A stretch of DNA of 64,000 nt from Thermotogota bacterium (GCA_039679545.1 JBDKUT010000163.1:17997-81996); one strand, 5' to 3'; positions 9,686 to 44,578 are shown, counted from the first letter of the stretch. The notes: generated by a model from the letters alone, not told the origin. Program-made: numbers and translations.

Positions 9686-9957
9686 CGGCTCGACTCCTTC
9701 TTCCTTGTGCCCCCCTCACCCGCCGGCGCCCGACGCTCTTCCGAGGCCACGTACCTTTCTCACACCGAAGTTAACCCACGTCGGCGCCCCTCGATCCCCG
9801 CTCCCATTGTCGCAGATCAGATCCTGCAACGCGAGCGCGCCCCCCCAAAAAAGCTCCTTTCTTCTCGTTAACACGAATCCCCTCGACAAGCGCCACCCGT
9901 CCTCACGGGCATGGTCCCCAGGCTTTCACGGAATCGACGGCGAAGCCCAATCCTCCG

Positions 9958-18351: not shown

Positions 18352-18360
18352 GCCAACCTC

Positions 18361-18807
18361 CTACTCGATGCGCTGCAGGCCCAAGTATCGTGTCTTGGGA
18401 AACCCGCGCTGCAGGTCGTCCCAAAGGAGTCCCTTCAGGATCGCCGGATGAACGACCCAATCAGCCATTTCGCCGCGGGACGCGAAGCACGCTTCGACGA
18501 CAAAGCCTTCGTCGGGGTCTCGGTGCTCGACGGTCGGCGACCCCTCGGCCGCCCGCGCGAGAATCCAGAACTTGCAGAAGTGGAGGTCCCCCTCGAGAAA
18601 CTCCTCGATGTAGACGACGCGCTCGGGCACGACGTTGAGGCCCGTCTCTTCATACGTCTCGCGCCGGGCGCAGTCGAAGATCGACTCCTCGCCGCGAAGC
18701 CGCCCGCCGGGGGGGACCCAGAAGTCCTGTCGGCTGTCCAGGTGGTGCACGACCAGAAGAGCGCCCTCCCGGGCGACGATCGCGCCGGCACTGATCGCGT
18801 AGCGCAT
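18361..18807 (-). CDS. NUDIX hydrolase
   Basis: Nudix box GGRLRGEESIFDCARRETYEETGL; start chosen at MRYAISAG (weak RBS). Confidence 0.8.
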   Translation of the reverse strand: MRYAISAGAIVAREGALLVVHHLDSRQDFWVPPGGRLRGEESIFDCARRETYEETGLNVVPERVVYIEEFLEGDLHFCKFWILARAAEGSPTVEHRDPDEGFVVEACFASRGEMADWVVHPAILKGLLWDDLQRGFPKTRYLGLQRIE

Positions 18808-18900
18808 GGTCTTGTGAGTGTCTTCCCGAGGCCGTCCGGCTTCAATCCCTCCCCATGGCGCGCCCAACCTCGATCGGCTATGGTAGCCATCGAGGGGACG

Positions 18901-20925: not shown

Positions 20926-21016
20926 CCAGTTCTGTGGGCGACGCCGGCCCTCCGAGGAGTGAGAGCCTCGAGCGCGCCTGTTCCATTCCATTGGGTTGTA
21001 GCGACATGCGGCGGTA

Positions 21017-21105
21017 TTGACGAGGACCGGCCTCGGATTATAATGGCAACGATTTCGGAAAACGATACACCTTAGAACTGAACAGCGCGAAAACGTTTTC
21101 CGAAA
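21017..21105 (+). promoter_or_regulatory. Sigma70-type promoter TTGACG-16-TATAAT plus LacI-family operator (tttcggaaaacg ... palindrome GAAAACGTTTTC), copy 1
   Basis: -35 ~21017-21022, -10 ~21039-21044; 12-mer at 21053-21064 and its reverse complement at 21094-21105; element duplicated at 27073-27161. Confidence 0.6.
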
Positions 21106-21111
21106 CAGCCC

Positions 21112-21402
21112 ATGAACCGACGAGAGCCGAGGAAGCGAGCCACAGTCCGCGACGTCGCACTTCGCGCCAGTGTATCCATCGGCAACGTCTCCCGAGTGAT
21201 CAACTACGGTGTCTCCTCCCAAGTGCACGACACGACGCTCACGCGTCTGACCCAGGGTGCATATCAACTCACGCGATCCACAATTACAGGAGACACCCCG
21301 CAAGCACGAGCGATACGAAAACGCTGCCCGTGCAGCAAGGGAGGTGGTCGCAGAGCCAATGCGCTTGGTGCATTACGTGATGATAATGTCATATACATTT
21401 AA
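21112..21402 (+). pseudogene. LacI-family regulator remnant retaining only the HTH headpiece (first ~47 codons homologous to the intact paralog at 27168)
   Basis: MNRREPRKRATVRDVALRASVSIGNVSRVIN...SSQVHDTT aligns with the 27168 gene; remainder of ORF unrelated, ligand-binding domain absent. Confidence 0.55.
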
Positions 21403-21413
21403 AGGAGGTTGCG

Positions 21414-23000
21414 GTGGTCATTAGGCGTAAGCGCGTGTACGTCGCAGTTCTCGTAGGAGCGCTGTCCTTGTTGCTCTATGGGACGCCTCTGCTCGCTAGT
21501 ACTCCTGCAGACACCTTGGTCGTTGGAACCTTGCAGGAGATCTCTCTTGTGGACCCATCTATCGACTACAGCTTCACCGGCGGGCCCATCTTCCCAGCTG
21601 CGTATGAGCGCCTCGTCACCTTCAATAGCCACACCGGGAAGGTTGAGCCTGAGCTAGCCGTCAGTTGGGACATATCGGAGGACGGCACGGTCTACACCTT
21701 CAACGTGCGGCAGGGAGTGCAGTTTCACGATGGGTCAGCCCTCAACGCGGAATCTGTCAAGATCGCGTTTGACCGAACGATGAAGATCAACAGGGGACCG
21801 GCATGGATGCTGCGCGACTACGTCAAGGAAGTCGCTGTCGTCTCACCCTACGTCGTGCAGATTACTCTGAAGGCTCCGTTCGGCCCCTTCTTGAAGGTGC
21901 TGACCTCCTCTTGGGGTATGTCGATCATGAGCCCGAAAGCCTTGGCCGATCATGAGGAAGCGGGCGATCTCGCGCAAGGCTGGTTCCACGACAATATGTG
22001 CGGCACGGGACCGTACAAACTCGTCAGCTGGACGAAGGGCCAACAGATGGTGTTCGAGAAGTTCGACGCATATTGGCGCGGATGGGACGGGAACCATGTT
22101 GACCGAGTCATCGTGCGGGTGGTCCCTGACCCTACGACCTTGGTCATGATGCTTCGAAACGCTGATATAGACATCGCCTCGTACGGGCTGGTTTCCGAGT
22201 TAGGACCAAGCCTCGAGGGTGCCCCCCACTTGGTCACAGAGTCATACGAGACCTACACAACGGAAGCCGCTTTCATGAACACGACACGCGCCCCTCTTGA
22301 CGACGTCAGAGTGCGCCGAGCCATGTCGTACTCATTCCCCTACGAGGGAGCCTTGCAGGCCTATGGCGGCTACGCGGAGCGCTTGATTGGCCAATTGCCG
22401 CCCTCCTTGCCTGGTTTTGATCCCAACAGTCAGGTCTATCATCAAGACCTGGCCCTGGCCAAGAAACTGCTCACGGAAGCAGGAATCAATGAGGGTAGCC
22501 TGGCCTTGGAGTGCACGTGGGTTACTGAACAGCCAACCGGTGGAAGAATCGCCGAGCTCTGGCAACAGGATCTGGCAACGATCGGAGTGACCCTCAAGCT
22601 GACCGAGGTGAACGCTGCCGGCGGTTGGCTCCGAATATCCAGCCCGGAGACAACGGCTGACTTCACGATCACGAGGTGGGGAGTCGACTACCCTGACGCT
22701 CTGTCCAATCTGCTGCCTCTATACAAGAGCGATCTCACACCTGACAAAGGCGGGTACAACATCGGGCGATACAGCAATCCCTACGTGGATCAGCTCCTCA
22801 TCCAAGCCTCTCAGGAGGCGAATGTAGAAAAGGCAGTGCTCCTGGAGCAAGAAGTTCAACGCTACATCACGGACGATGCCCCGTCCATCTTCATCGTTGC
22901 AGTACCGCAGCTTGTCTGCTATCAGGACACCGTCAAGGGGTTTGTCTACGACCCGGGCTACTTCAGCTCCTTCAACCTCTATAACATGTACAAGGAGTAG
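21414..23000 (+). CDS. ABC transporter substrate-binding protein, family 5 (peptide/nickel/opine type)
   Basis: Signal peptide, SBP_bac_5 pattern; ~60% identical to paralog 28295..29854; AAAGGAGG RBS before GTG. Confidence 0.9.
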   Translation: MVIRRKRVYVAVLVGALSLLLYGTPLLASTPADTLVVGTLQEISLVDPSIDYSFTGGPIFPAAYERLVTFNSHTGKVEPELAVSWDISEDGTVYTFNVRQGVQFHDGSALNAESVKIAFDRTMKINRGPAWMLRDYVKEVAVVSPYVVQITLKAPFGPFLKVLTSSWGMSIMSPKALADHEEAGDLAQGWFHDNMCGTGPYKLVSWTKGQQMVFEKFDAYWRGWDGNHVDRVIVRVVPDPTTLVMMLRNADIDIASYGLVSELGPSLEGAPHLVTESYETYTTEAAFMNTTRAPLDDVRVRRAMSYSFPYEGALQAYGGYAERLIGQLPPSLPGFDPNSQVYHQDLALAKKLLTEAGINEGSLALECTWVTEQPTGGRIAELWQQDLATIGVTLKLTEVNAAGGWLRISSPETTADFTITRWGVDYPDALSNLLPLYKSDLTPDKGGYNIGRYSNPYVDQLLIQASQEANVEKAVLLEQEVQRYITDDAPSIFIVAVPQLVCYQDTVKGFVYDPGYFSSFNLYNMYKE

Positions 23001-23010
23001 TTTCTTCTTT

Positions 23011-23040
23011 CCCCCTGCGGTGCCTGCGCACCGCAGGGGG
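23011..23040 (+). other. Intercistronic perfect 13-bp stem-loop (ccccctgcggtgc-ctgc-gcaccgcaggggg) between SBP and permease genes
   Basis: Read directly from sequence; no T-tract downstream on + strand, so likely mRNA-stabilising/attenuating rather than a full terminator. Confidence 0.6.
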
Positions 23041-23053
23041 CCCATTCGACATC

Positions 23054-24067
23054 ATGGCCTACGTCATCTACGTCCTGAAGAGATGCGCTCTGCTGCTGCT
23101 CGTGATCCTTGGGGTCGTGACACTGACCTTTTTCGTATCTCACGTGCTGCCTGCGGATCCCGCCAGACTCAGCGGCGGGATCCGTGCTAGACCGGAACAG
23201 GTCGAAGCCCTTAGGGCAAAACTGAACCTCGACAAGCCCATACTCACGCAGTATTGGCTGTATCTTAGGGGACTGTCGAGAGGCGACTTGGGTACCTCGG
23301 TTCGCACGGAGCAACCAGTGAGTAGAGATCTTCTCACCTACTTTCCCGCTACTCTTGAGTTGACGTTCTCTGCGGTGATGCTTGCCATGTGCGTCGGTAT
23401 CCCGCTCGGAGTCCTTTCGGCCACCTCAAGAAGACGCTTCTTCGACTTCGGTGTCAGGACCTTCTCTGTTGGCGCTGTCTCTATACCCTCGTTCTGGCTT
23501 GGCCTGATGCTTCAACTGGTGTTCTACATGAACCTCAACCTGCTGCCTTGCCAAGGACGCCTCAGCCCCTTTGTCGCCCCTCCCAGCCACACTACCGGCC
23601 TGTACGTTCTAGATAGTCTCTTGGCTTGGAACGGTGCAGCCCTGGTCAACTCTCTGCAGCACCTCGTTCTGCCCACGCTGGCCTTAGGTGCTGGATCACT
23701 TGCAGTCATGACACGAATGACGCGGTCCAGCGTACTTGAGGTTCTTCGTACTGACTATGTTCAGACAGCGTGGGCGAAGGGGCTCTCGAAACAGGCCGTT
23801 CTCCTCAAGCATGTGCTTCGGAACGCTCTCCTGGCAATATCCACCGTGATAGGCCTTCAAATCGGCGCTCTTCTTGCAGGATCTATCCCCATCGAAGTCG
23901 TGTTCTCCTGGCCTGGTGTTGGCTCCTACGCTGCGAAAGCCATCACGTTTGTGGATTTCAACGCCATTCTCGGGGTCACCATCATCAGCGCGGTGGCATA
24001 TGCAGTGCTGAATCTCATGATCGATCTGCTGTACTTGTCAATTGACCCGCGTATTAGGTATGTCTAG
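23054..24067 (+). CDS. ABC transporter permease (DppB/OppB-like)
   Basis: 6-TM BPD_transp_1 pattern; paralog of 29924..30928. Confidence 0.9.
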   Translation: MAYVIYVLKRCALLLLVILGVVTLTFFVSHVLPADPARLSGGIRARPEQVEALRAKLNLDKPILTQYWLYLRGLSRGDLGTSVRTEQPVSRDLLTYFPATLELTFSAVMLAMCVGIPLGVLSATSRRRFFDFGVRTFSVGAVSIPSFWLGLMLQLVFYMNLNLLPCQGRLSPFVAPPSHTTGLYVLDSLLAWNGAALVNSLQHLVLPTLALGAGSLAVMTRMTRSSVLEVLRTDYVQTAWAKGLSKQAVLLKHVLRNALLAISTVIGLQIGALLAGSIPIEVVFSWPGVGSYAAKAITFVDFNAILGVTIISAVAYAVLNLMIDLLYLSIDPRIRYV

Positions 24068-24457
24068 CGCGCCTGACTCCATGCGAAAAACCGGCAGCCA
24101 ACCAGCCAAACATAGGCCAGCGGTTCTCGGTCGCCTAGGCCTCCGCCCTCTATTGTTGTGTTTTCTGCAACGGGGTTGCGTGGGCCTAGAGGGATCGATG
24201 TGGCTGATCCTCGACTATGACTGGCTCCGACGCTGGGCCGTGGCGTTCGGGTGCGCGAAGCGCCTCATGCGGACTGGGACACAGCGAGTGCTGCCCGGCT
24301 GCGAATCCGACATGTCATGGCGCATCCGGGCGGCGCCTGACCCTGCACGCCGCATCGCCGATAGCCAACCGAGAAGCCCAGTCCCCGCAACGGTCACGCC
24401 GCCACAATGGAGGTCCGCCGAGTGATCAGGAAGAGCTGCTACCTAGCCCGCAAGCTG

Positions 24458-25294
24458 ATGAGCGTCCAGCGGGTCATCTCCAAGGATGCAATCGGCGTAG
24501 TGGGAGCATCGATATGTGTGCTCATGCTGGGCATTGCGCTGCTTGCCCCGCACATTGCGCCCTACAATCCTTTGGCAGCGGACATGAAGATCCGGCTAGT
24601 CGCTCCGTGCGCTGCGCATGTCATGGGAACGGATGAACTGGGCCGAGACGTCCTTTCTCGGGTGATCTACGGCTCTCGGATCTCACTGCTCGTATCGATT
24701 TCGGTTGTCTCTATCGCGTTCCTCGCCGGGGTCCTCTTGGGCGCTGTCAGTGGCTTCTTTGGCGGCTGGGTCGACAACCTCATCATGCGGGTGACAGATG
24801 TCTTCCTTGCGTTCCCCGCATTGATGCTGGCGATGGTTGTTGCGTTCGCCTTCGGTCCCGGAATCCGTTCAACCGTTCTGGCGATGTCGGTTGTCTGGTG
24901 GCCCTGGTATGCACGGCTGGTGCGGGCTTCTGCTCTCTCCATTAGGGAGCACACATTCGTTGAAGCCGCTCGTGCTACTGGTGTTTCGAGGGGGGGCATC
25001 CTCTTCCGCCACATACTCCCAAACTGCCTCGCTTCGTCTCTCGTGCAGGCGACGTTGGATATGGGGTATGCCATCCTTACGACAGCGACTCTGAGTTTTC
25101 TGGGCCTCGGCGCGCAGCCCCCAACCCCCGAATGGGGATCAATGATCAACCAGTCACGATCGTATCTTCTGGTCGCGTGGTGGACAATTACGTTTCCAGG
25201 CATAGGCATCTTCATCACAGTGCTCGGGATCAATCTCCTCGGAGATGCCGTTCGGGATTTCATGGACCCGAAACTGCGCCATGTCAGGAACTGA
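24458..25294 (+). CDS. ABC transporter permease (DppC/OppC-like)
   Basis: Paralog of 30941..31792; start set at MSVQRV (ORF extends to 24407). Confidence 0.85.
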   Translation: MSVQRVISKDAIGVVGASICVLMLGIALLAPHIAPYNPLAADMKIRLVAPCAAHVMGTDELGRDVLSRVIYGSRISLLVSISVVSIAFLAGVLLGAVSGFFGGWVDNLIMRVTDVFLAFPALMLAMVVAFAFGPGIRSTVLAMSVVWWPWYARLVRASALSIREHTFVEAARATGVSRGGILFRHILPNCLASSLVQATLDMGYAILTTATLSFLGLGAQPPTPEWGSMINQSRSYLLVAWWTITFPGIGIFITVLGINLLGDAVRDFMDPKLRHVRN

Positions 25295-25306
25295 GAATGG
25301 AGGACC

Positions 25307-26359
25307 ATGATGGCAGAACCAAGATGGAGTGACTATTCTGGTGTTGTGCACGTCCACTCTACGTGTTCTGATGGCTTGGGTTCGATGGAACAGATCATCG
25401 ATGCGGCGTGTGCGGAGCACCTGGATTACCTGATTACTACGGATCACAACACGCTGGCACCAAGGCACCATGAAGGATGGCACGGCGATACCCTCGTCCT
25501 GGTAGAAGAGGAAGTCACTCAACCCGCCAACCATCTCTTGGCTTTGAACATCCGCGATGAGATCGTTCCGCCAATTAGCCCACAGCAATCGATCGACGCA
25601 GTGCTCGCACAGGGGGGGCTCGCTTTCATGGCCCATCCCTTCTATCAGGGGAGCAAACTTCTCGGCGATCCACCGATCCCCTGGACTGATTGGAAGGCGA
25701 CTGGCTTCACCGGGATGGAGATCTGGAACTTCACGGCGGAATTGTATGAGAGCCTCTCGGAAGAGAAGGAGCTGCGACCGCTCGAGACGTATCGTGCGCT
25801 GATGCGGCCTAAAGCAGAGGTGTTGAGAACATGGGACCGGCTTCAGCAAGAACGCCGCGTTGTAGGCCTTGCTGGGCTTGATGCTCATGCGGAGCAGATC
25901 GTGCAAGGCGGAGAGAGAGTGACTCTATTGCCTTACGCAACGATATTCCGCACTCTCCGCATGCATGTACTCCTTGAGCATCCATTCACCGGTAGCCTGC
26001 CAGATGACAGACGAGCTGTCTATGCGGCTCTACGAGACGGTCATGGTTATATCGCCTTCGAATACGAGTCCCCAGTAGACTCCTTCACCTTTGCGGCCGT
26101 TGACAGAACGGGAGCAATTGCAGGGGTGATGGGCGATGAGTTCGGATGGAAGCCTGGCATGCGTTTGTCCATCGCACTCCCCAGACCAGCAGCAATCAGG
26201 GTCATCCGGAATGGAGAAACGCTCGAAGAGGTCTGCGGCCCTTCACTCCTTCTTTCTGTTGAAGAGGACGGCTGCTATCGCGTAGAGGTCCAGCGGGACG
26301 CTCTCCCGTGGATAGTGTCCAACCCCATATACATTCGAAATGGGCGCTCCTCAACTTGA
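25307..26359 (+). CDS. PHP-domain metal-dependent phosphoesterase
   Basis: N-terminal HVHSTCSDG...TDHN PHP motifs; GGAGGA RBS; present only in copy 1 of the duplicated operon. Confidence 0.8.
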   Translation: MMAEPRWSDYSGVVHVHSTCSDGLGSMEQIIDAACAEHLDYLITTDHNTLAPRHHEGWHGDTLVLVEEEVTQPANHLLALNIRDEIVPPISPQQSIDAVLAQGGLAFMAHPFYQGSKLLGDPPIPWTDWKATGFTGMEIWNFTAELYESLSEEKELRPLETYRALMRPKAEVLRTWDRLQQERRVVGLAGLDAHAEQIVQGGERVTLLPYATIFRTLRMHVLLEHPFTGSLPDDRRAVYAALRDGHGYIAFEYESPVDSFTFAAVDRTGAIAGVMGDEFGWKPGMRLSIALPRPAAIRVIRNGETLEEVCGPSLLLSVEEDGCYRVEVQRDALPWIVSNPIYIRNGRSST

Positions 26360-26374
26360 GAAGAGCAGTACGGC

Positions 26375-26520
26375 GTGTTGGACGGCCGCCTAGCACAGCG
26401 GATGCGGATGCAGGCCATGCGGGCCGAGGTCGGCTGCACAGTTCGCCGGTCGCCGATCGACCGGGCACTCGGGCCTTTGACCGCGCGTTCACCGCAGCGG
26501 GAAAGACGTTCGGCCGCTGA
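26375..26520 (+). pseudogene. Class-III aminotransferase remnant: first ~15 codons fused to last ~30 codons (internal ~1.3 kb deletion)
   Basis: MLDGRLAQRMRMQ ~ MMDGYLAQRKRMQ of 31838 gene; ...IDRALG...RAFTAAGKTFGR* ~ C-terminus IDRALGIFDRAFAAAERKFGR*. Confidence 0.55.
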
Positions 26521-26529
26521 GGTGGGCCA

Positions 26530-26700
26530 CGCCACAAGTCAGCCAGCCAAGGTGCCGTGCTCGGGTCAACCAACGCCGGCCTCGTCGCACGCATGGCCTC
26601 GCTGCCGCAGCCGGGAGAGATGGCCCTCAGTCATGTCGCACTACCCGGGCGGAGAATAGCCCAACCAGGCCGTCGCGGCCGACACGCCGGGAGGTGGACG
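26530..26700 (+). pseudogene. pfkB/ribokinase-like kinase remnant (start codon lost, frameshift and in-frame stop)
   Basis: Nucleotide homology to 33305.. (gccagtcATGagccaaccagcc vs gccacaagtcagccagcc; VLGSTNAGLVARMASLPQPGEMALS vs [25 protein letters not shown]); end approximate. Confidence 0.5.
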
Positions 26701-27072
26701 AGCTCCTCTACGTCCACCCAAACCACGGGCTCCCCTCGTTCACTGCGTTCCGCAGTGGCTGATCGGGGCGCGGACGCTCGATGGGTCCATCTCGGAAGCG
26801 GTCTCGGACTTGGCCGCCTCGAGACGATGCCGTGAGCCGACGCCATCACGACTTTTCCTGTCACGATGAGCAGACGCACGGCCGCGGACTCCACACCGGG
26901 GAACCCAGGCAAACGAACAAGAGCGACGGTTCACCGACACGTCCACAGGAACGAGCACTTTTCTGATAACCGCCTCGCGGAGTTGTCAAGTCACGTGAAG
27001 GATCTCCGGAAAGCCGGACGCTGGAGAGGTCTCCTGCTCGACTTTGGCTAGTCGGAGCGGTTTGCGTCGGCA

Positions 27073-27161
27073 TTGACTGGGGGTGAGTCCTGACTATAAT
27101 GGCAACGATTTCGGAAAACGATACCCCGAAGAACCGAACAGCGCGCAAACGTCTTCCGAAA
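27073..27161 (+). promoter_or_regulatory. Sigma70-type promoter TTGACT-16-TATAAT plus LacI-family operator, copy 2 (upstream of intact LacI gene)
   Basis: -35 ~27073-27078, -10 ~27095-27100; tttcggaaaacg 27109-27120; cgtcttccgaaa 27150-27161 (1 mismatch to inverted copy). Confidence 0.6.
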
Positions 27162-27167
27162 CACTCC

Positions 27168-28232
27168 ATGAATCGACGAGAGCCGAAGAAGCGAGCCACG
27201 ATCCGCGACGTCGCCCTCCGCGCAGGGGTTTCGATCAGCACCGTCTCCCGGGTGATCAATCACAAGGACTCCTCGCAAATGCGCGACACCACGCGGGAGC
27301 GCGTCGTCGACGCGATGGCGGCCCTCGACTACACGCCGGTGAAGGCCGCCCGCGACCTGCGCCGGCGAAGAACTCACGTCGTGGCCCTCCTCGTCCCCGA
27401 CATCTCCAATCCGTTCTTCTCGCTCCTCGCACGCGGGGTCGAGGCCGCCGGATTCAAGGTGGGGTACTCGACGCTGATCTGCGACACCAACAACTCCGGG
27501 GACGAGGAGCGGCAGTACATGAGCGTCCTCCTTCGGCAGAACGTGGACGGGGTGATCCTGGTCCCGGTAGGAAAGCCCGACCGCGCGAGTCTGGAGAGGC
27601 TGGACCGCTCGAACATCCCGGTGGTCACGGCGGATCGCCGGGCGCCGGGCATCCCGCACGTCGAGGCCGACAACGCCGGAGGCAGCCGCAACCTGGCGAA
27701 GAGCCTCGTCAGCCTTGGGTACCGAAGGATCGCGTACCTCGGAGGCCCGCAAGAGGTCAGTACGGCCGAGGACCGGCTCCAAGGCTTTCTGGAAGGCCTC
27801 GCCGAAGGCGGCGCCGCTCCGGCGGCGGTTCGCCGAGGAGATTTCACGTACGACTCCGGGGTGTCCTTGGGCGCCGAGATTCTGGGGGAAAAGCGCCTGG
27901 ACGCCGTCGTCGCCGGCAACGACCTGATGGCGATCGGCGTCCTCCACGCGGCGATGGCTGCGGGGCGAAGAGTGCCCGAGGACCTTGGAGTCGCCGGATT
28001 CGACGACATTCAGTGGGCGGCCCTCGTGCGGCCGCGGCTCACCACGGTCCGGGTCCCCTTTCTGGAGATCGGGCAGTGCGCGGCACGTGCCCTCGTCGCC
28101 CGCATCCTGTCCCACGAGAGCGCAGAGGAGCACACCCGTCTCCCCGTCAGCTTGGTAATCGGCGACTCGACGTGTGCACAAAGGAATACAGGACTGGGTC
28201 GTCCTCGGGGAACGGACCCGAAAGCGAGGTGA
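27168..28232 (+). CDS. LacI family transcriptional regulator
   Basis: N-terminal HTH (ATIRDVALRAGVSISTVSRVIN) and periplasmic-binding-like sugar-binding domain; 354 aa. Confidence 0.9.
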   Translation: MNRREPKKRATIRDVALRAGVSISTVSRVINHKDSSQMRDTTRERVVDAMAALDYTPVKAARDLRRRRTHVVALLVPDISNPFFSLLARGVEAAGFKVGYSTLICDTNNSGDEERQYMSVLLRQNVDGVILVPVGKPDRASLERLDRSNIPVVTADRRAPGIPHVEADNAGGSRNLAKSLVSLGYRRIAYLGGPQEVSTAEDRLQGFLEGLAEGGAAPAAVRRGDFTYDSGVSLGAEILGEKRLDAVVAGNDLMAIGVLHAAMAAGRRVPEDLGVAGFDDIQWAALVRPRLTTVRVPFLEIGQCAARALVARILSHESAEEHTRLPVSLVIGDSTCAQRNTGLGRPRGTDPKAR

Positions 28233-28294
28233 TCGAAGGTCGAAGGGCAGTTCGGGAGCGTAGGCTACGGCAAGTGTGCAGGGAGGCTTGAACC

Positions 28295-29854
28295 ATGAGA
28301 ACCCGTTTTGCTTGTTGCCTTGTGGCGTTGCTCGGCGTCTCGGCGGTCTCCGCGATCGCCTCCACCCCCGCCGACACCTTGGTGGTCGGGGTTGTGGAGG
28401 AAGTCACGACGATGGATCCCGCTATCGACTACACGTTTGGAAGCGGACCGCTCTTCCGGGCCGCTTACGAAAGGCTCGTGACCTTCAACACGGCGTCCGG
28501 GAAGATCGAGCCGCAGCTGGCTCTCTCCTGGGACGTGTCGGACGACGGCCAGTTCTACACGTTCCACCTCCGCAAGGGCGTGACGTTCCACGACGGCGCG
28601 GCGTTCAACGCAGCGGCCGTAAAGACGGCCTACGACCGCGTCATGACGATCAACGAGGGTCCGGCGTGGATGCTGACCTCGTACGTCGCGGCAATCGATG
28701 TCGTGGATGACGCGACCGTCCGATTCACAATGAAGACGTACCCATTCGTCCCATTCCTGCGCGTGCTCAGCTCCTATTGGGGCATGTGCATCGCCAGCCC
28801 CACCGCCATCACCCAGAACGCGGGCGACGACATGGGGAAGACGTTCTTCCGAAATCACATCGTCGGAACCGGCCCGTACAAGCTCGTCGAGTGGGTCGAG
28901 GGCCAGCAGATGGTGTTTGAGCGCTTTGACGGGTACTGGGGCGGCTGGACCGGCAACCACGTGAACCGCATCGTGCTGCGGAAGATCCTCGACACGACGA
29001 CGATGGCCCTGCTCCTCGAGAGCGGCGACCTGGACATCGCGTACGGGATCCCGCTCGATGAGCTGACGAGCCTGAACGGCAAGCCCGGCGTCGTCATCGG
29101 CGTCCACGACACGTTCACGACGAACATGATCGCGATGAACACGACGAAGGGCCCGCTCGCCGACGTTCGCGTGCGCCGAGCGCTCTCCTACTCGTTCGAC
29201 TACGCGAGCGCGATGGAGGTCTTTGCCGGGTACACAACGCCCCTCATTGGCCAGATTCCGGCCGGCATGCCGGGTCACGACGACAGCCTGCCGCACTACG
29301 TCTTCGACCTCGACGTGGCGAAGCAGCTGCTCGCCGAAGCAGGGTACGCGAAGGGGCTTTCGCTCGAGTACACCTGGGTCACGGAAGAGCCGGAGGGACG
29401 CCGGGTCGGCGTTCTGTGGCAGGACACGCTACGGAAGATCGGCGTCGATTTGAAGGTCACCGAAGTCACGGTCGCCGGACACTGGGACCGAGTCTCGAAC
29501 ATCGAGACGATGCCGGATCTCGCCAACTACCGGTGGGGCATCGACTACCCAGACCCGTCGTCCGTCCTGGTGCCGCTCTACCACGGCGACAACGCGCCCC
29601 CGGCGGGCTACAACCTCTCGCGGCTCGCGGATCCGCGGGTCAACGCCATCCTCGACGCATCGGGGAAGGAACCCGATGAGACGAAGAGACTCCAACTCCT
29701 GGCGGAGGCCCAGTCGCTCCTGCTGACCGGTGCTTCCAACATCTGGATCACGGCGGTTCCGGTCACGGTCTGCATGCGCAGCAACGTGCAGGGCTACGTT
29801 TTTGAACCGGCCGCGTTCTCATCGTTCAACTTCTACGACATCTACAAGAAGTAG
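28295..29854 (+). CDS. ABC transporter substrate-binding protein, family 5
   Basis: Signal peptide; SBP_bac_5 pattern; GGGAGG RBS. Confidence 0.9.
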   Translation: MRTRFACCLVALLGVSAVSAIASTPADTLVVGVVEEVTTMDPAIDYTFGSGPLFRAAYERLVTFNTASGKIEPQLALSWDVSDDGQFYTFHLRKGVTFHDGAAFNAAAVKTAYDRVMTINEGPAWMLTSYVAAIDVVDDATVRFTMKTYPFVPFLRVLSSYWGMCIASPTAITQNAGDDMGKTFFRNHIVGTGPYKLVEWVEGQQMVFERFDGYWGGWTGNHVNRIVLRKILDTTTMALLLESGDLDIAYGIPLDELTSLNGKPGVVIGVHDTFTTNMIAMNTTKGPLADVRVRRALSYSFDYASAMEVFAGYTTPLIGQIPAGMPGHDDSLPHYVFDLDVAKQLLAEAGYAKGLSLEYTWVTEEPEGRRVGVLWQDTLRKIGVDLKVTEVTVAGHWDRVSNIETMPDLANYRWGIDYPDPSSVLVPLYHGDNAPPAGYNLSRLADPRVNAILDASGKEPDETKRLQLLAEAQSLLLTGASNIWITAVPVTVCMRSNVQGYVFEPAAFSSFNFYDIYKK

Positions 29855-29923
29855 GATTCGGCTCTCAGATGGGGGAGTTCCTCCGATGAGGAGAGGGCTC
29901 CCCCCTTGCTGGATCGGCAGGTC

Positions 29924-30928
29924 ATGGTTCGCTACATCGTGAAGCGGTTGGCGCTCTTGACCATCACGCTCCTGGGCGTGTTGACGCTGACCTTCTTTGT
30001 CTCGCACGTCGTTCCCGGAGATCCGGCGCGCCTCGCGGCGGGCGTACGCGCCAGGCCCGAACAGGTCGAAGCACTCCGAACAAGGCTCGGCCTCGACCGC
30101 CCGCTGTGGCAGCAGTACGGCCACTACATCGCTGGCGTGGTTCGGGGGGACCTCGGAGAGTCGATCCGGACGCGCCGTCCGGTCTCCGCCGACCTGGCCG
30201 AGTACTTCCCGGCCACGGTCGAACTCACCGCATTCGCCATGATCCTCTGTCTTCTCATCGGGATTCCACTCGGAATCGTCTCGGCCGTCAAGCGAGAGTC
30301 GGTCATCGACCACGTCTCCCGCGTCGCGTCGACGGCGGCCGTGTCCATGCCCACGTTCTGGCTCGGCCTGCTCTTGCAGCTCCTCTTCTTCCGTTGGCTC
30401 CAGATTCTCCCGGCGACGGGGCGCCTCGGCTTCTACCTCTCGCCGCCCGCCCACGCGACGGGGCTGTACGTGCTCGACAGCCTGTTCTCGGGGAACTGGA
30501 CCGCGCTCGGAGACAGCCTCGTCCACCTCATTCTCCCAGCCACGGCGCTCGCGGCGAGTTCCATGGCCGTGATCACGCGCATGACGCGATCGAGCCTCCT
30601 CGAGATCCTCTCCCTTGACTACGTCCGAACGGCTCGTTCGAAGGGACTGGCCGAGAAGGTCGTCATCCTCAAGCACGCACTTCGCAACGCGCTCTTGCCG
30701 AGTCTCACCGTCATCGGCCTGCAGGTTGGCGTGCTCCTGGCCGGAGCCGTGCTGATCGAAGTGGTCTTCAGCTGGCCCGGGATCGGGTTGTACGCCGTCC
30801 AATCCATCACGTTCGTCGACTTCCAGGCAATCCTCGGCGTCACCCTGATCACGGCGATCGTCTACTCCGGGGTCAACCTGATCGTCGACGTCTTGTACGG
30901 GGTCATCGACCCACGAATTCACTACTAG
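29924..30928 (+). CDS. ABC transporter permease (DppB/OppB-like)
   Basis: Start at MVRYIVKRL by analogy to paralog MAYVIYVLKR. Confidence 0.9.
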   Translation: MVRYIVKRLALLTITLLGVLTLTFFVSHVVPGDPARLAAGVRARPEQVEALRTRLGLDRPLWQQYGHYIAGVVRGDLGESIRTRRPVSADLAEYFPATVELTAFAMILCLLIGIPLGIVSAVKRESVIDHVSRVASTAAVSMPTFWLGLLLQLLFFRWLQILPATGRLGFYLSPPAHATGLYVLDSLFSGNWTALGDSLVHLILPATALAASSMAVITRMTRSSLLEILSLDYVRTARSKGLAEKVVILKHALRNALLPSLTVIGLQVGVLLAGAVLIEVVFSWPGIGLYAVQSITFVDFQAILGVTLITAIVYSGVNLIVDVLYGVIDPRIHY

Positions 30929-30940
30929 GAGAACGGGGAC

Positions 30941-31792
30941 ATGAAGGCATTCTGGGAGAAGCTCGGACGATGGATCGCGGTGAGGCCGCTCGCCGCCGCC
31001 GGAGCGGCGACCCTGCTCGCCATCCTGCTTCTCGCGCTCCTCGCACCGGTGCTCCCGCTTCAGGACCCTCAGTCCGTGAACATGCACGACAAGCTCCTTC
31101 CGCCGTCGGCGGCGCACCCGATGGGGACCGACGACCTCGGCCGCGACATCCTCAGTCGCGTCGTGAACGGTGCGCGGACCTCGCTCTTGGTGAGCGTTGT
31201 GGTCGTCGCCTGTGCCTCCGTGTTCGGCATGGGCGTCGGCCTGACGGCGGGCTACTTCGGTGGAATGGCGGACGAACTCATGATGCGGACGACGGACATC
31301 TTTCTCGCGTTCCCCGGACTCATCCTCGCCATGGCCGTCGCCGTCGTCCTCGGCCCCGGCGTCGTTCCGACGATCGTCGCTCTGTCCATCGTCTGGTGGC
31401 CGTGGTACGCCCGGCTGGCTCGATCGGAGGCGCTGATGCACAAGCAGGCGGACTTCGTGGAGGCGGCCCGAGCAACGGGCGTCCCGACGTGGAGGATCCT
31501 CCGTTCCCACATCCTTCCGAACTCGCTGTCGCCGCTCATCGTTCAGGCGACGCTCGACATGGGGTACGCGATCCTGACGACGGCGTCGCTGAGCTTTATC
31601 GGATTGGGCGTGCAGGAGCCGACCGCGGAATGGGGCGCCATGCTCAACATCGGCCGAAAGTACCTTCTCTCCGCATGGTGGTTCATCACGTTCCCGGGTC
31701 TCGCCATCTTCATCACGGTTCTGGCGATCAACCTCGCCGGAGACGGCCTTCGAGACTACCTCGACCCGAGAACGAGGAAACGGGGCGCCTGA
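30941..31792 (+). CDS. ABC transporter permease (DppC/OppC-like)
   Basis: 6-TM permease; AGGAGAACGGGGAC ATG. Confidence 0.9.
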   Translation: MKAFWEKLGRWIAVRPLAAAGAATLLAILLLALLAPVLPLQDPQSVNMHDKLLPPSAAHPMGTDDLGRDILSRVVNGARTSLLVSVVVVACASVFGMGVGLTAGYFGGMADELMMRTTDIFLAFPGLILAMAVAVVLGPGVVPTIVALSIVWWPWYARLARSEALMHKQADFVEAARATGVPTWRILRSHILPNSLSPLIVQATLDMGYAILTTASLSFIGLGVQEPTAEWGAMLNIGRKYLLSAWWFITFPGLAIFITVLAINLAGDGLRDYLDPRTRKRGA

Positions 31793-31837
31793 CCCGCTTC
31801 GGGGCGGGCGCCCCACGTTAAAACAAAGGAGTACGAC

Positions 31838-33292
31838 ATGATGGACGGTTACCTGGCGCAACGTAAGAGGATGCAGATCTCGCAGGTCGAGATCGATCGG
31901 CGCATCGCGGAAGCCCCATTCGGACCTGCCTCGAAGGAGTGGGCGAGCCGCTGGCTCTCCGCCGAATCGTGGGGGCAGGTCGGCCTCGCGCTGTTCGACC
32001 TTCCGCCGATCGTCGAACGCGCGGAGAACGACCTCTTGATCGACGCCGACGGCAAAGAGTACGTTGACCTCTTGGCGGGATTCTCGGTTTCCTCGCTCGG
32101 GCAGTGCAACGAGGAGATCGCCCAGGTCATCCGCAACCAGGTCGGGAAGCTCGTCCACTACTTCGATCTACCCCACCCCGAGCGGATCAAGCTCGCCGAG
32201 CGCCTGAAGGAGATCTCGCCGATCGCCGGGAGTGACTCGCGCGTCTTATTCGGCGTCACCGGAGCGGACGCCATCGAGTTGTCGGTTCGCGCGGCGCGGT
32301 TCTACACCGGGCGACCTCTCATCCTGACCGCCTTCGGCGACTACCACGGCGTCACGTACAGCACGATGGCCCTGACGGGCAAGGGCGGCATGTGGGCGTA
32401 CTTCTACCCGGTGCTTCCGCACTGCGAAGGCATCGGGTACTTCCCGTTCCCGTATCCATACCAGTCGCCGTTTGGACGCCCGCCGGCCGGCGAAGACGAC
32501 CAGGCCTGGTGCCTCGACCGACTGCGCGACTACTTCGAGTACTACTTCAAGAGCAAAGAATCCCCCTACCGTGAAGTGAAGAGCGGAATCACCAACGTCG
32601 CCGCGTTCGTCGTCGAGCCATTTCAGAGTTCCGCCGGGTACATTCTCCCCTCCGCCGGCTACCTGAAACTCCTGCGGCGCTTGGCAGACGAGTACGGAAT
32701 CCTCCTGATCATCGACGAGATCCAGACAGGACTCGGGCGCACCGGGAAGCTCTGGGCCACCGACTGGGAGGACGTAAAACCTGACATGCTCGTCACGTCG
32801 AAGGCTCTCGGAGGTGGCCTGCCGCTCTCGGCCGTCGTGGCGCGCGCCGAGATCCTCGAGGCGTGGGGACCCGGAGCCCACGTCTCAACGCAGGCGGGCA
32901 ATGTCCTCGCTTGTGCTGCCGGGAACAAGGCCCTCGATCTCCTCACAGCGGACGGCTTCCTCGACAAGGTCCGAGCCCACGGTGCGTACTTCGAGGCCGA
33001 ACTCGCGACGCTCGCGAAGAAGCATCCTCTGATTGGCCACATCAATGCCCGCGGCATGTACATCGGACTCGAGCTCGTCCGAAACCGAGACACGCGAGAA
33101 CCCGCGCCGGATGAAGCCAGCTTCATTCTCAAGGAGTGCGTCCGCGAGGGGATGGTGTTCGAGAAGGGCGGGTACTTCCACAACCGATTCCAGCTCATCC
33201 CGCCGCTCACGATTCGTCGATCGACCATCGACCGGGCCCTCGGGATCTTCGACCGTGCGTTCGCGGCGGCAGAAAGGAAGTTCGGCCGCTGA
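31838..33292 (+). CDS. Class-III pyridoxal-phosphate-dependent aminotransferase
   Basis: DEIQTGLGRTGKLWA and TSKALGGG(L) (Schiff-base Lys) motifs; AAAGGAG RBS. Confidence 0.9.
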   Translation: MMDGYLAQRKRMQISQVEIDRRIAEAPFGPASKEWASRWLSAESWGQVGLALFDLPPIVERAENDLLIDADGKEYVDLLAGFSVSSLGQCNEEIAQVIRNQVGKLVHYFDLPHPERIKLAERLKEISPIAGSDSRVLFGVTGADAIELSVRAARFYTGRPLILTAFGDYHGVTYSTMALTGKGGMWAYFYPVLPHCEGIGYFPFPYPYQSPFGRPPAGEDDQAWCLDRLRDYFEYYFKSKESPYREVKSGITNVAAFVVEPFQSSAGYILPSAGYLKLLRRLADEYGILLIIDEIQTGLGRTGKLWATDWEDVKPDMLVTSKALGGGLPLSAVVARAEILEAWGPGAHVSTQAGNVLACAAGNKALDLLTADGFLDKVRAHGAYFEAELATLAKKHPLIGHINARGMYIGLELVRNRDTREPAPDEASFILKECVREGMVFEKGGYFHNRFQLIPPLTIRRSTIDRALGIFDRAFAAAERKFGR

Positions 33293-33304
33293 GGCGGGCC
33301 AGTC

Positions 33305-34255
33305 ATGAGCCAACCAGCCAGAGTGTCCGTGCTCGGGTCGATCAATGCTGACCTCGTTGCGCGTGTGGTTTCGCTGCCGCGGCCGGGAGAGACGGTCCTG
33401 AGCAGCTCGTTGTCGCACTATTCGGGAGGCAAGGGGGCGAACCAGGCGGTCGCCGCTGCGCGGATGTCGGCCCGCGTCACGTTCTACGGGAAGACGGGGG
33501 CCGACTCCGCGGGAGACCAACTTCTCGCCGGGCTCCGCACCGAGGGGATCGGCACAAAGCAGATCCAACGGATGAACGGGGTCGAGACGGGGATGGCACT
33601 CATTCTCGTCAGCGACGCAGGCGAGAACACGATCGTCGTCGTTGCGGGTGCCAACGATCACGTCGACGCGGAATACGTCGACGCGGTCATCACCGACGTC
33701 GGCTTTGCCGACACGCTTCTGCTTCAGTTCGAGGTTCCGCCCGAGGCGATCCGCCGTCTGCTCGATCGCCTCCCGCCGAATCGCCCAAAGGTGATCGTCG
33801 ATCCCGCTCCCGCGCGGGACGTTACCGACCTTCCGCTCGCCCGGATCGACGTCATGACCCCGAACCGAACTGAGTTGGCTGCGCTGACGGGCGTAGACGA
33901 CATCGAGACCGGCGGTCGACGCCTGCTCGATCGAGGCGTCAAGTGCGTCATCTGTACGTGCGGATCAGACGGCAGCTACCTCATCGAGAACAGGGGAACG
34001 ACCCACTTTCCAGCGTTCCCGGTGCACGCCGTCGACACGACGGCGGCGGGCGACGCGTTCGCGGGCGCCTTGGCCGTCTTCCTCTCCAGCGGGGACTCGA
34101 TCGCTGTCGCAATCCGCGCAGCAAACGCCGCGGCGGCGCTTTCGACCACACGCCCTGGCGCTCAACCGTCGTTGCCAACGCGGCGGGAGGTGGACCAATT
34201 CCTACAGGCCCACCCCGGCCACGGCATCCCCTCGTTTGCTCCGTTTCGCGGCTGA
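33305..34255 (+). CDS. pfkB-family carbohydrate kinase (ribokinase-like)
   Basis: [14 protein letters not shown] and [13 protein letters not shown] motifs. Confidence 0.9.
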
Positions 34256-34269
34256 TGCGGCGAGGGCGC

Positions 34270-34881
34270 TCAGTTTCCTGAAGCGGTGATCGATGGTTCG
34301 ATGAGTTCTTGCATGCCGCCGCATCCTCCCTGGCTGATCGGAGTCGAGCAAAGGCTACGATAGCACGAGCCTTCGGTCGTCAGGCCGTAAGCGGCCGGGT
34401 CGATGCCCCGCGCCACCATCTCCGCGGCAACATAGTAGTCCCAGCGAGCGAAGTGGAACCACTGGAGAACGCTTTCACGGACCTGGTCAATCGTGAAGTT
34501 GAGGTCGAGGAGGAGGTGTGCGGCAAGCCCCTTGCCGCTTCGGATGATATTGCACGCCTGGCCCTCTTCCGTCTCGCAGCAGCAATGGAACGTCATATTG
34601 TCGTCACAGCACGGAGCGACAAGCGCCGACAGCGCCTCGACGTATCGCGGGTCCGTTTCCGCGGCCGGAACCAGCGAGTACCACCAGCCGATGAAAAGCG
34701 GGAGGGACTCCCGGGACAGCGGAATCCCGTACTCCGTGGCAGTTCCGAGTGCCGGAACGATCTCCGACTTGATCGCCTCAACAAGATCTCCATCCGCCAG
34801 CACCGCGATTCCTGCGGCGCTCACCAAGAGCAGGCCGACCGCCGTCACACGCCAGCAACGCATTGCCTTCTCGCTTCTCAT
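34270..34881 (-). CDS. Membrane-anchored/secreted hypothetical protein with dense Cys cluster (APCCDDNMTFHCCCETEEGQAC)
   Basis: Hydrophobic N-terminus (start uncertain: 34881 or 34863 or 34923); no family recognised. Confidence 0.5.
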   Translation of the reverse strand: MRSEKAMRCWRVTAVGLLLVSAAGIAVLADGDLVEAIKSEIVPALGTATEYGIPLSRESLPLFIGWWYSLVPAAETDPRYVEALSALVAPCCDDNMTFHCCCETEEGQACNIIRSGKGLAAHLLLDLNFTIDQVRESVLQWFHFARWDYYVAAEMVARGIDPAAYGLTTEGSCYRSLCSTPISQGGCGGMQELIEPSITASGN

Positions 34882-35013: not shown

Positions 35014-35772
35014 TCAGGAAGCGGGCGGATGGAGCACAGCTTCCGACTGCGCCGAGAGCCAGCCGCAGAACCGATCCAGGCGCTCCGCGGCCTCGGAGAG
35101 GATCGTCCTCCCCTTCTCCTCGTCGGCCAGCGATGGGTCTCCGACGTTGCCGAGGTCAGAGAACTCAGCGGCGTCAAACGCGACTTGCACCCCTTCGACG
35201 AACCTTCCCCACGGCGCGCAAGCGCCGCGATCGGCGCTCGCATCGCCCATACGCTCCGTGCGGACGGATTCGGGGTCGATGACAAGCATCGCGCTCGTCT
35301 CGACCGCACCTCCGTGCGCGTCGGTCTTCGGGAAGAGCACGGCAAGCGTCTCTGGGACGGCCAGCCACCAGTTGAACGTGAACGCGTAGACGGACTCCTC
35401 GCGCAGACGGAGGACGGCCTCGGCCAGGGGTGCTGCATTCGAGCCGTGGCCGTTCACGAAGACCAGCCGGCGAATCCCGTGTGCACCGAGCGACCGGCCG
35501 CAGGAGATCGCGAGGTCGCGAAGTTGGTCCGGAGACACGGAGAGGGTGCCGGGGAACTGCCGGTGTTCGTGGGAGACGCCCACAGTCAGAGCCGGAAGAA
35601 GGAGGCGATCGCCTCGGCCCGCCACAGCGCGCCCGAGGTACGAGGCAATTGCGGCATCGGTACCGAGCGGCAGGGCGGGGCCGTGCTGTTCAACGGCGCC
35701 GACCGGAAGGAGAGCCACGCAATCAGCGGGAAGATCAGCGATCTCCTCCCACGTCATCCTGACGAGTTCCAT
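35014..35772 (-). CDS. Creatininase-family amidohydrolase (creatinine amidohydrolase / MftE-like fold)
   Basis: LPVGAVEQHGPALPLGTD and VNGHGSN motifs; AGGAGG RBS 6 nt before ATG. Confidence 0.85.
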   Translation of the reverse strand: MELVRMTWEEIADLPADCVALLPVGAVEQHGPALPLGTDAAIASYLGRAVAGRGDRLLLPALTVGVSHEHRQFPGTLSVSPDQLRDLAISCGRSLGAHGIRRLVFVNGHGSNAAPLAEAVLRLREESVYAFTFNWWLAVPETLAVLFPKTDAHGGAVETSAMLVIDPESVRTERMGDASADRGACAPWGRFVEGVQVAFDAAEFSDLGNVGDPSLADEEKGRTILSEAAERLDRFCGWLSAQSEAVLHPPAS

Positions 35773-35917
35773 TGGATTCCTCCTGAGCAGCCGTCGGCCA
35801 TGATAGCTTTCCCACGACCGCGTGGAAAGCGGTGCCACGGTCCGTGACCGCGGGTTCGCAACCCGGTAGTATCGACCGGTTCGTTGCCGCGCAGAGTCAT
35901 CGAGTGAGGGGGCTGGG

Positions 35918-39747: not shown

Positions 39748-40257
39748 ATGATCCACCACCCACGACAGCCAGAAGAGATGACGCTCGGGCAGCTGCTGAC
39801 CGAGGTCGCTCGGCTGACCGGCGACCGACTCCGCATCCAGATGAAGCAGATCGGCCTTCACCGCGCTCAGGCCTTCGCCCTGTTCTGCCTGTGGCACCAC
39901 GACGGGCTGGCACAGAACGAACTCGCGAGAAGAGTCCACGTTACGCCGGCGGCGGTCACGCCGATGCTCCAACGCATGGAGCGCGACGGCTGGGTGGAGC
40001 GCCGAACCGACCCGGACGATCAACGCATCTCGAGGGTCTACATGACGGACAAGGCACGAGCGCTCCGCCGGCAGGCATCGAGCGTGTTCCGTGATCTCGA
40101 CGCGGAGGTTGCAGGGGCGCTCTCGGCCGACGAGCGCGATGCTCTGCGGAAGCTCCTGATGAAAGTCCATGCGGAGTTCCGACGGCACATGGCACCGCTC
40201 CACCAGCACCGGTTCGGTTGGCTCCCCGGCGATGACGACCAGGAGGAAGGTTCGTGA
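39748..40257 (+). CDS. MarR family transcriptional regulator
   Basis: Winged-HTH MarR pattern (QAFALFCLWHHDGLAQNELARRVHVTPAAVTPMLQRMERDGWV); GAGGAG RBS. Confidence 0.9.
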   Translation: MIHHPRQPEEMTLGQLLTEVARLTGDRLRIQMKQIGLHRAQAFALFCLWHHDGLAQNELARRVHVTPAAVTPMLQRMERDGWVERRTDPDDQRISRVYMTDKARALRRQASSVFRDLDAEVAGALSADERDALRKLLMKVHAEFRRHMAPLHQHRFGWLPGDDDQEEGS

Positions 40258-43905: not shown

Positions 43906-43985
43906 AGGGCACCGAGGGGCTTCACAAATTGCACAAGGGACTTACGTAGCATCGGTTCTGGAAGTCAGGAAACGAGAGGAGTGAC

Positions 43986-44576: not shown

Positions 44577-44578
44577 GC

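Follow-up and report, generated by a model that had tools for sequence, protein, structure and literature searches.

What does a bacterium take up and degrade with an operon that joins a Dpp-type ATP-binding cassette (ABC) importer lacking ATPase genes to an aminotransferase and a sugar kinase? Such an operon occupies positions 27168-34255 of a 64-kb stretch of DNA from a metagenomic assembly labelled Thermotogota bacterium (GCA_039679545.1, JBDKUT010000163.1:17997-81996). The whole stretch was analysed and is called the window here; coordinates count from its first nucleotide, and all cassette genes listed lie on its plus strand. Genes were identified with Pfam and NCBIfam profile searches. 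For comparative analysis, labelled reference proteins were mapped by tblastn onto 64 fetched loci, with added Pfam and NCBIfam checks; simple gene calling erred at several high-GC loci, for which reason neighbour counts are to be read as minimum values and the analysis relies chiefly on the tblastn map. The six-gene locus proposed in a preliminary description was found intact, its co-directional genes carrying the proposed domains and being separated by 12-62 bp (Table 1). Since these genes are also under purifying selection, the locus is genuine rather than an accidental array of reading frames. In makeup, the locus resembles a ribose operon fused with an amine-transaminase step and equipped with a Dpp-type importer that would draw on ATPases from elsewhere; it is neither an Frl or opine system nor a complete Dpp system. 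Tentatively, and with less than even confidence, we read it as a LacI-autorepressed catabolic operon for an amine-bearing ribose precursor, on which the aminotransferase and then the ribokinase would act, with import driven by ATPases encoded in trans.

Profile scores and residue conservation indicate that the kinase is a canonical ribokinase (RbsK), so free D-ribose, or something very similar to it, would have to be the compound that the pathway supplies. The protein passed the ribokinase equivalog model TIGR02152 of NCBIfam (317.6 bits, cutoff 299.65) and fell below the cutoff of PRK11142 (296.5 versus 341 bits); the kinases that adjoin orthologous aminotransferases elsewhere scored 288-343 bits on TIGR02152. 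In HMMER alignments to the E. coli and Vibrio ribokinase structures (1GQT/1RKD and 4X8F, respectively), the ribose-contacting and catalytic residues of E. coli RbsK were all kept (N14, D16, G42/K43, N46, E143 and D255 of the GAGD motif). The operon resembles rbsDACBK-rbsR of E. coli and Bacillus in having a LacI-family repressor with RbsR as its best model, an orthologous ribokinase, an ABC importer and, as predicted, ribose-5-phosphate as product. It differs in that a Dpp/PepT-type importer without an ATPase replaces RbsABC, an aminotransferase gene stands between transporter and kinase, and RbsD is absent.

The aminotransferase is a class III, pyridoxal 5'-phosphate (PLP)-dependent enzyme. 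Its family spans Bipolaricaulota, Thermotogota-labelled metagenome-assembled genomes (MAGs), Caldisericota, Spirochaetota, Bacillota (Virgibacillus) and others at 55-95% identity, and none of its members has an informative name. In the family alignment the PLP lysine K322 and the PLP-N1 aspartate D293 are invariant, as are three replacements relative to the group that acts on 4-aminobutyrate (GABA), ornithine and acetylornithine. These are V172 (HG-V-T where 4FFC, 6WJ8 and 7VNO have HG-R-T); QSSAG in place of QGEGG, so that the Glu of the Glu/Arg switch is missing; and Q452, which aligns with the canonical C-terminal Arg (9WQZ) and is preceded by an Arg two residues earlier (R450). In E. coli GabT the distal-carboxylate Arg, the Glu and the C-terminal Arg are R141, E211 and R398. 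The enzyme scored under every cutoff of the NCBIfam GABA aminotransferase models, and its signature residues point to a place outside the GABA/beta-alanine:2-oxoglutarate subgroup (GabT/PuuE). The nearest solved structures, all of modest similarity, are archaeal racemases of alanine and serine or of broad amino acid specificity and an isoleucine 2-epimerase.

Amine transaminases that use pyruvate are usually partnered by alanine dehydrogenase, whose gene often adjoins distant members of this aminotransferase family. Relatedly, the enzyme is comparable with those of amine:pyruvate omega-transaminase pathways such as the taurine Tpa-Ald route, in which a class III PLP enzyme without the GABA-type Arg, likewise accompanied by alanine dehydrogenase, turns an amine into a carbonyl compound that then enters metabolism. 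It is unlike them in having Gln in place of the canonical C-terminal Arg, an Arg two positions ahead of that Gln, and RbsK or DhaK/L as its partner, not Xsc or a reductase. A further parallel, in reaction type, is the HpnO step of aminobacteriohopanetriol synthesis, in which the open-chain aldehyde form of a side chain derived from ribose and the matching 1-amino-polyol are interconverted by a class III aminotransferase; HpnO is biosynthetic and its substrate is hopanoid-bound.

The comparison of orthologous loci called for in the preliminary description showed the aminotransferase-RbsK pairing to be nearly constant among relatives: it is kept in several phyla and in four transporter and enzyme contexts, where the partner substrate-binding proteins (SBPs) are otherwise of the sugar/polyol (CUT1) or the 2-aminoethylphosphonate/polyamine type. 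Context A is that of the window, namely LacI, family-5 SBP, two permeases, aminotransferase and RbsK. It is shared with four relatives at 93-95% identity, with L006 and L066 (~75% identity), which have an extra ArgE/DapE-type M20 deacylase gene ahead of the aminotransferase, and with L014, whose layout is divergent; no member has an ATPase. Context B is a cluster of ten genes conserved among MAGs labelled Bipolaricaulota or Thermotogae (L001, L012, L015, L016, L017 and L019, at ~2000-12400 in each). It encodes a CUT1 transporter, two TRZ/ATZ-like amidohydrolases, a PreA-like protein with dihydroorotate dehydrogenase and Fer4 domains, a molybdoenzyme resembling selenium-dependent xanthine dehydrogenase, a dihydropyrimidinase (TIGR02033, 454 bits, cutoff 393), the aminotransferase and RbsK, and in some loci also a MalK-like ATPase. 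From its gene content, this cluster looks like an undescribed anaerobic degradation pathway for a nucleoside or an N-ribityl or N-ribosyl heterocycle. Context C combines LacI, a PhnT2/PotA-like ATPase, a PhnS-like SBP and permeases with a PHP-family hydrolase and the aminotransferase; the last two are adjacent in L010, L011 and L013. In context D, found in Bacillota, LacI, RbsK and the aminotransferase accompany a CUT1 sugar/polyol-type SBP.

Minimal loci, with nothing beyond regulator, transporter, aminotransferase and RbsK, were seen in the window's downstream operon and in L005, L007, L009, L022, L014 and L023; transamination and phosphorylation therefore appear sufficient. Among 59 open reading frames (ORFs) downstream of the aminotransferases, PfkB (8), M20 (6), Dak1 (4) and Dak2 (4) domains lead. 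A PDB sequence search with the M20 enzyme returned only uncharacterised or generic relatives. Aminotransferase relatives at 50-60% identity adjoin genes for Dak1/Dak2, M20, short-chain dehydrogenase/reductase, iron-type alcohol dehydrogenase and alanine dehydrogenase. Several such loci from Spirochaetota and Bacillota (L004/L028, L029, L032, L037, L041, L042 and L047-L049) combine Dak1/Dak2, iron-type alcohol dehydrogenase, an RraA-like protein, alanine dehydrogenase and transketolase with NMT1-type or CUT1 transporters. Judging by these neighbours, the Dak1/Dak2-linked loci may encode a C3/C4 amino-polyol or sulfonate pathway.

The importer has the SBP and the DppB- and DppC-type permeases of a Dpp/Opp system (PepT family, Transporter Classification (TC) 3.A.1.5) and lacks the pair of ATPases with ABC_tran plus oligo_HPY domains. 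A six-frame scan for Walker-A and LSGGQ motifs placed ABC ATPases in the 64 kb only at ~2-3.8, 14-15, 40-45 and 57-59 kb, none within or beside either of the two transporter units described here, and their motifs and partners mark them as ABC-F-like proteins or exporters. A DppD/F-like pair taken from a relative among the spirochaetes, used as tblastn query, retrieved no such gene from the window or from any orthologous locus. The claim that neither unit encodes an ATPase thus stands, and with it the need for ATPases encoded in trans; ATPase genes just outside the window do not come into question as part of the same operon, since the operon's boundaries lie inside it. The ABC genes nearest downstream accompany a MarR-like regulator at 39748-45265 and comprise fused exporter genes (40254-42056 and 41962-43905) and an FtsE/LolD-like ATPase gene (~44555-45265); all are of exporter type, and a partnership with the Dpp-type permeases is unlikely.

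The layout without ATPase recurs in at least eight genomes, with intact ORFs. In comparisons with three relatives the ratio of nonsynonymous to synonymous substitution rates (dN/dS) is 0.06-0.09 for the SBP and both permeases and higher for LacI and RbsK; such strong purifying selection indicates that the importer works and that its ATPases must be encoded elsewhere. These would be of the DppD/F type. A typical relative (P0139) carries both ATPases; the classic five-gene layout is seen in a homologue from Clostridia. Like the importers served by the multitask ATPases MsmX, MsiK and MsmK, this one is encoded by SBP and permease genes lacking a nucleotide-binding protein; however, those ATPases are MalK-type homodimers documented for CUT1 importers only (PMC7658222), whereas the normal partner of PepT-type permeases is a DppD/DppF heterodimer. 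If the importer does work in this way, ATPase sharing reaches beyond CUT1 to PepT importers, which bears on the prediction of transport from genomes. Two further sets of Dpp-type SBP and permease genes without ATPases were observed, at 19667-21448 (minus strand) of L013, an Acetothermia MAG, and at 8001-11636 of L068, an unrelated metagenome contig; PepT-type operons of this kind may be commoner than documented.

The best matches of the SBP are GsiB/YliB and DppA, with AgaA and AccA also among its PDB matches, and its family of orthologues is narrow. D417 (in RWGIDYPD) corresponds to the ammonium-binding Asp of DppA (D408) and is invariant in 11 sequences; the carboxylate-binding R355 of DppA aligns to a gap and so appears not to be conserved. 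The importer is like DppABCDF and GsiABCD in its SBP_bac_5 protein with the ammonium Asp, its DppB- and DppC-like permeases and their order, but unlike them in the missing ATPase pair, the apparent lack of R355, the sugar-type regulator and the coupling to a sugar kinase.

Taken in series, these parts would work as follows. The Dpp-type SBP and two permeases would import an amine-bearing polyol, using ATPases from elsewhere; the class III aminotransferase, probably with pyruvate, would take off the amino group to give free D-ribose; and the ribokinase would convert this to ribose-5-phosphate. The simplest substrate for just an aminotransferase and a kinase would be a 1-amino-1-deoxy-pentitol of the ribitylamine type, for example 1-amino-1-deoxy-ribitol. 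Omega-transaminases do interconvert D-ribose and its amino-polyol (PMC6492202). Several observations favour this order of events: the minimal loci hold only transporter, regulator, aminotransferase and RbsK; the M20 deacylase and the PHP hydrolase found in other loci would bare an amine or strip a phosphate, not free a sugar; distant aminotransferases pair with dihydroxyacetone kinase, a C3 analogue of the same logic; the aminotransferase is without distal-carboxylate-binding residues; and the SBP keeps D417 but apparently not the Arg355 of DppA. As a general idea, the aminated sugar-like substrate of the preliminary description fits these comparative data. If the proposed sequence is right, it provides the first physiological role for a widespread, uncharacterised subfamily of class III aminotransferases, and a two-step route from amino-polyol to pentose phosphate in uncultured bacteria of the subsurface and hot springs.

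Other findings weigh against this reading. Free amino-polyols of the ribitylamine type have no established place among environmental nutrients, and a literature search gave synthetic uses only. In context B the aminotransferase-RbsK pair ends a cluster of nucleoside or heterocycle type, where the aminotransferase could act on a beta-amino acid, and the PHP-aminotransferase loci of context C have no adjacent ribokinase. The archaeal racemases nearest to the aminotransferase leave room for a PLP reaction other than transamination. The partner ATPases are postulated from the importer's conservation, none of the DppD/F type being within the 64 kb, and a 2020 study knew of reports of shared ATPases for CUT1 sugar importers only (PMC7658222). 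Lastly, the AlphaFold model of the SBP (pLDDT 55) is too poor for ligand inference.

A more far-reaching version, which we consider distinctly doubtful, holds that the aminotransferase-ribokinase module is an undescribed salvage pathway for 1-amino-1-deoxy-pentitols that also handles masked imports, has C3 relatives and relies on multitask DppD/F-type ATPases shared among several PepT-family importers, of which Bipolaricaulota would provide the first case. Possible sources would be the aminopentanetetrol head groups of Aquificales and methanogen phospholipids, or ribitylamine from flavin, lumazine or F420-type heterocycles. Phosphorylated forms would be unmasked by the PHP hydrolase and N-acylated forms by the M20 deacylase, and distant relatives of the aminotransferase would convert C3 amino-polyols by way of dihydroxyacetone kinase. 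No described pathway was found in the literature for ribitylamine, for serinol with dihydroxyacetone kinase, or for Bipolaricaulota with ribokinase.

The main rival to the serial scheme is a parallel one, in which a ribose-amine conjugate is imported and split into ribose, for the ribokinase, and an omega-amino acid such as beta-alanine, for the aminotransferase. Candidate conjugates are a (dihydro)pyrimidine riboside, derived from a nucleoside or with its ring opened, and other compounds with an N- or O-ribosyl group. This seems unlikely, although it has real points in its favour: in the six context B loci the aminotransferase, usually with RbsK, directly follows the dihydropyrimidinase cluster; CytR, UriR and RbsR are among the best LacI matches; and nucleotide phosphates are the substrates of the proteins closest in structure to the PHP hydrolase. 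Yet a hydrolase able to split a conjugate is missing from the operon of the window and from six or more other loci, and the aminotransferase neighbours (59 downstream ORFs) included neither a nucleoside hydrolase nor a phosphorylase. Moreover, GABA/beta-alanine:2-oxoglutarate transaminases bind carboxylate with an Arg that this aminotransferase does not have, and an M20 amidase would free the amine rather than the sugar.

We give little credence to the idea that the locus is an ordinary importer of di- or oligopeptides or amino acids with a PLP racemase or transaminase and a passenger ribokinase, even though the SBP matches and the retained ammonium-binding Asp, as well as the racemases and epimerase nearest to the PLP enzyme, are what it would predict. 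The adjacency of aminotransferase and RbsK is kept across phyla, also with CUT1 and PhnS/PotA-like transporters; the regulator is of the LacI/RbsR type; Gln stands in place of the canonical alpha-carboxylate Arg in the aminotransferase; and Arg355 of DppA appears not to be conserved in the SBP. The Amadori/fructosamine-type or opine-like substrates and the FrlD-type kinase put forward in the preliminary description fared no better, and such a route now appears very improbable. Its theme suits the combination of a regulator of sugar type, an enzyme that handles amines and a pfkB kinase, and some family-5 SBPs bind opines, as the AgaA and AccA matches recall. The kinase, however, scored 45.7 bits on the fructoselysine kinase model NF007321 (cutoff 247) while passing the ribokinase model with all ribose-binding residues retained. 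No FrlB/SIS deglycase was found among the six operon genes or the 59 ORFs downstream of the aminotransferases, nor was an amadoriase or an opine oxidase or dehydrogenase found in the operon or among the aminotransferase neighbours. The operon does resemble frlBONMD-frlP of B. subtilis and frlABCD of E. coli in its predicted substrate, an aminated sugar derivative, and in its ABC importer and pfkB kinase, and the B. subtilis frl importer is also without a dedicated ATPase in its operon; it is unlike them in lacking FrlB, in having RbsK and not an FrlD kinase, in its PLP transaminase and in its LacI-type, not GntR-type, regulator. That the transporter genes are inactive relics, unable to work without ATPase genes, is scarcely credible: no ATPase gene serves them within 64 kb and decay does occur at this locus, as the cassette described below attests, but the dN/dS values and the intact ORFs in other genomes speak for a maintained importer, and a pseudogene region has fallen to 72.6% nucleotide identity while the coding genes hold 86-99%.

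Upstream of the operon lies a second, partly decayed cassette. A LacI-paralogue stub, which tblastn aligns with the downstream LacI over residues 1-67 at 54% identity (Pfam LacI HTH sub-threshold, 24.3 bits), precedes intact genes for an SBP, two permeases and a CehA/McbA-like PHP-family metallohydrolase, followed by remnants of an aminotransferase gene and of a ribokinase gene. The aminotransferase remnants are weak alone, but they are backed by the expected gene order after the PHP gene and by the PHP-aminotransferase adjacency in L010, L011 and L013. A second genome (L070) has the same tandem arrangement with a ribokinase stub; its stub region has drifted (72.6% nucleotide identity, versus 86-99% in coding genes). 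In L005, a 94% relative, lacI comes directly after the helicase gene with no upstream cassette between them, which marks the cassette as an insertion. By its remnants, the ancestral cassette was LacI-SBP5-PermBC-PHP-AT-RbsK (AT, aminotransferase), of which the transporter and the hydrolase alone have been kept up, presumably since the remaining functions come from the downstream operon. The two tandem units of the preliminary description both lack an ATPase and are not independent, the upstream one being a lower-GC decayed paralogue that shares the downstream operator. If the reading given here is right, the decayed paralogue is a clean natural case of redundancy loss following cassette acquisition: regulator, transaminase and kinase were deleted, and transporter, hydrolase and operator kept. 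A 340-bp spacer (24068-24406) separates the upstream permease genes, versus 12 bp between their downstream paralogues; its ORFs have no Pfam match, it is GC-richer than the cassette, and a 75-amino acid ORF is called there in L065.

The PHP hydrolase scored 77.9 bits on the CehA/McbA model NF038032 (cutoff 80), on which the L013 homologue reached 113, and its metal ligands (H15, H17, D22, H47, E69, H76, H110, D192 and H194) are all invariant. Its AlphaFold2 model (pLDDT 92) is nearest in fold to the PHP phosphoesterases 3E38 and 2ANU, RNase AM and 2YB1, which include uncharacterised PHP phosphoesterases and a nucleoside bisphosphate phosphatase. The dN/dS of the gene against L070 is 0.16. A PDB sequence search with the protein gave uncharacterised or generic relatives only, and the context of one distant homologue was uninformative. 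The most likely role of the upstream cassette would be uptake of a derivative in masked form, probably phosphorylated, for conversion by the hydrolase to the same intermediate as in the downstream pathway; the cassette would depend on the downstream LacI, aminotransferase and kinase.

A sigma-70-like promoter and a conserved putative operator directly 5' of lacI support the LacI control proposed earlier. The operator, CGATTTCGGAAAACG, forms the centre of a pseudo-palindrome of 21 bp, which is kept in five loci, is found upstream of lacI in L005, L006 and L066, and is invariant even where the aminotransferases share only 75% identity. Visual inspection revealed it, and a pattern search and an alignment bore it out; an inverted-repeat search gave no operator, the palindrome having an odd centre and mismatches. 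The pattern search of the window with CGATTTCGGAAAACG returned three matches, versus 0.57 expected. The upstream cassette has an identical copy, and the intact LacI plausibly represses both units through it. Weaker sites, CGTTTTCCGAAACAG and CGTCTTCCGAAACAC, accompany the upstream and downstream copies, respectively. With no other promoter-like site found ahead of the SBP gene, lacI and the rest of the operon probably share one transcript. The best models for LacI include RbsR, CytR and UriR, all below their cutoffs.

Table 1. Genes, gene remnants and predicted control sites of the upstream cassette and the downstream operon (window coordinates)
Feature	Position	Strand	Remarks
Sigma-70-like promoter, upstream cassette, TTGACG-16-TATAAT	21017..21044	+	11/12 matches; aligns with the lacI promoter
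Putative operator copy, CGATTTCGGAAAACG	21050..21064	+	Identical to the 27106-27120 site
Weaker second putative site, CGTTTTCCGAAACAG	21094-21108		Upstream cassette
LacI-paralogue stub, 67 N-terminal residues (helix-turn-helix (HTH) only)	21112..21324	+	In a 96-amino acid ORF ending at 21402
Family-5 SBP, upstream cassette	21414..23000	+	51% identical to downstream SBP; 100% to P0133/L065
DppB-like permease, upstream cassette	23054..24067	+	60% identical to downstream PermB
DppC-like permease, upstream cassette	24407..25294	+	57% identical to downstream PermC
CehA/McbA-like PHP-family metallohydrolase	25307..26359	+	PHP barrel plus C-terminal beta-sandwich
Aminotransferase gene remnants, residues 1-28 and ~457-484	26375..26517	+	tblastn E = 9e-4 to 8e-3
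Ribokinase gene remnants, residues 8-33 (69%) and 287-314 (64%)	26554..26750	+	E = 1e-7, 8e-10; middle deleted
Sigma-70-like promoter, lacI operon, TTGACT-16-TATAAT	27073..27100	+	11/12 matches
Putative operator, CGATTTCGGAAAACG	27106..27120	+	Core of 21-bp pseudo-palindrome, directly after the -10 box
Weaker putative site, CGTCTTCCGAAACAC	27150-27164		lacI operon
LacI-family repressor	27168..28232	+	Pfam HTH plus Peripla_BP
Family-5 (Dpp-type) SBP, signal peptide	28295..29854	+	SBP_bac_5, 298 bits
DppB-like permease (PermB)	29906..30928	+	BPD_transp_1; dN/dS 0.06-0.09
DppC-like permease (PermC)	30941..31792	+	BPD_transp_1; dN/dS 0.08-0.09
Class III PLP aminotransferase	31838..33292	+	Aminotran_3, 292.6 bits
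Ribokinase (RbsK)	33305..34255	+	PfkB, 218 bits

The locus is flanked 5' by a UvrD-like helicase gene and 3' by convergent genes, one of which, at 35014-35838 on the minus strand, encodes a Creatininase-family amidohydrolase (216 bits) and occupies the same position in L005. The UvrD-like ORF (17965-20925, 986 amino acids) is probably too long at its 5' end; the L005 helicase has 674 amino acids, and ahead of its gene the minus strand carries NUDIX and Fapy-glycosylase genes. In the window, minus-strand ORFs with high GC at third codon positions lie at 17521-19119. A PADLOC scan of the helicase gave generic helicase matches only, and an Rfam search of 20800-34600 found no RNA elements.

The GC content of the window is ~65%, with a poorer stretch of 57-60% at ~20-26 kb. 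Taxonomic labels conflict: proteins identical to those of the window are labelled Thermotogota bacterium, for which 65% GC is atypical, and close relatives of the locus are all labelled Bipolaricaulota or Candidatus Bipolaricaulis, among them the MAG contigs that carry the closest aminotransferase and SBP relatives (93-96% identity). GC content and relatives together favour assignment to a Bipolaricaulota-like organism.

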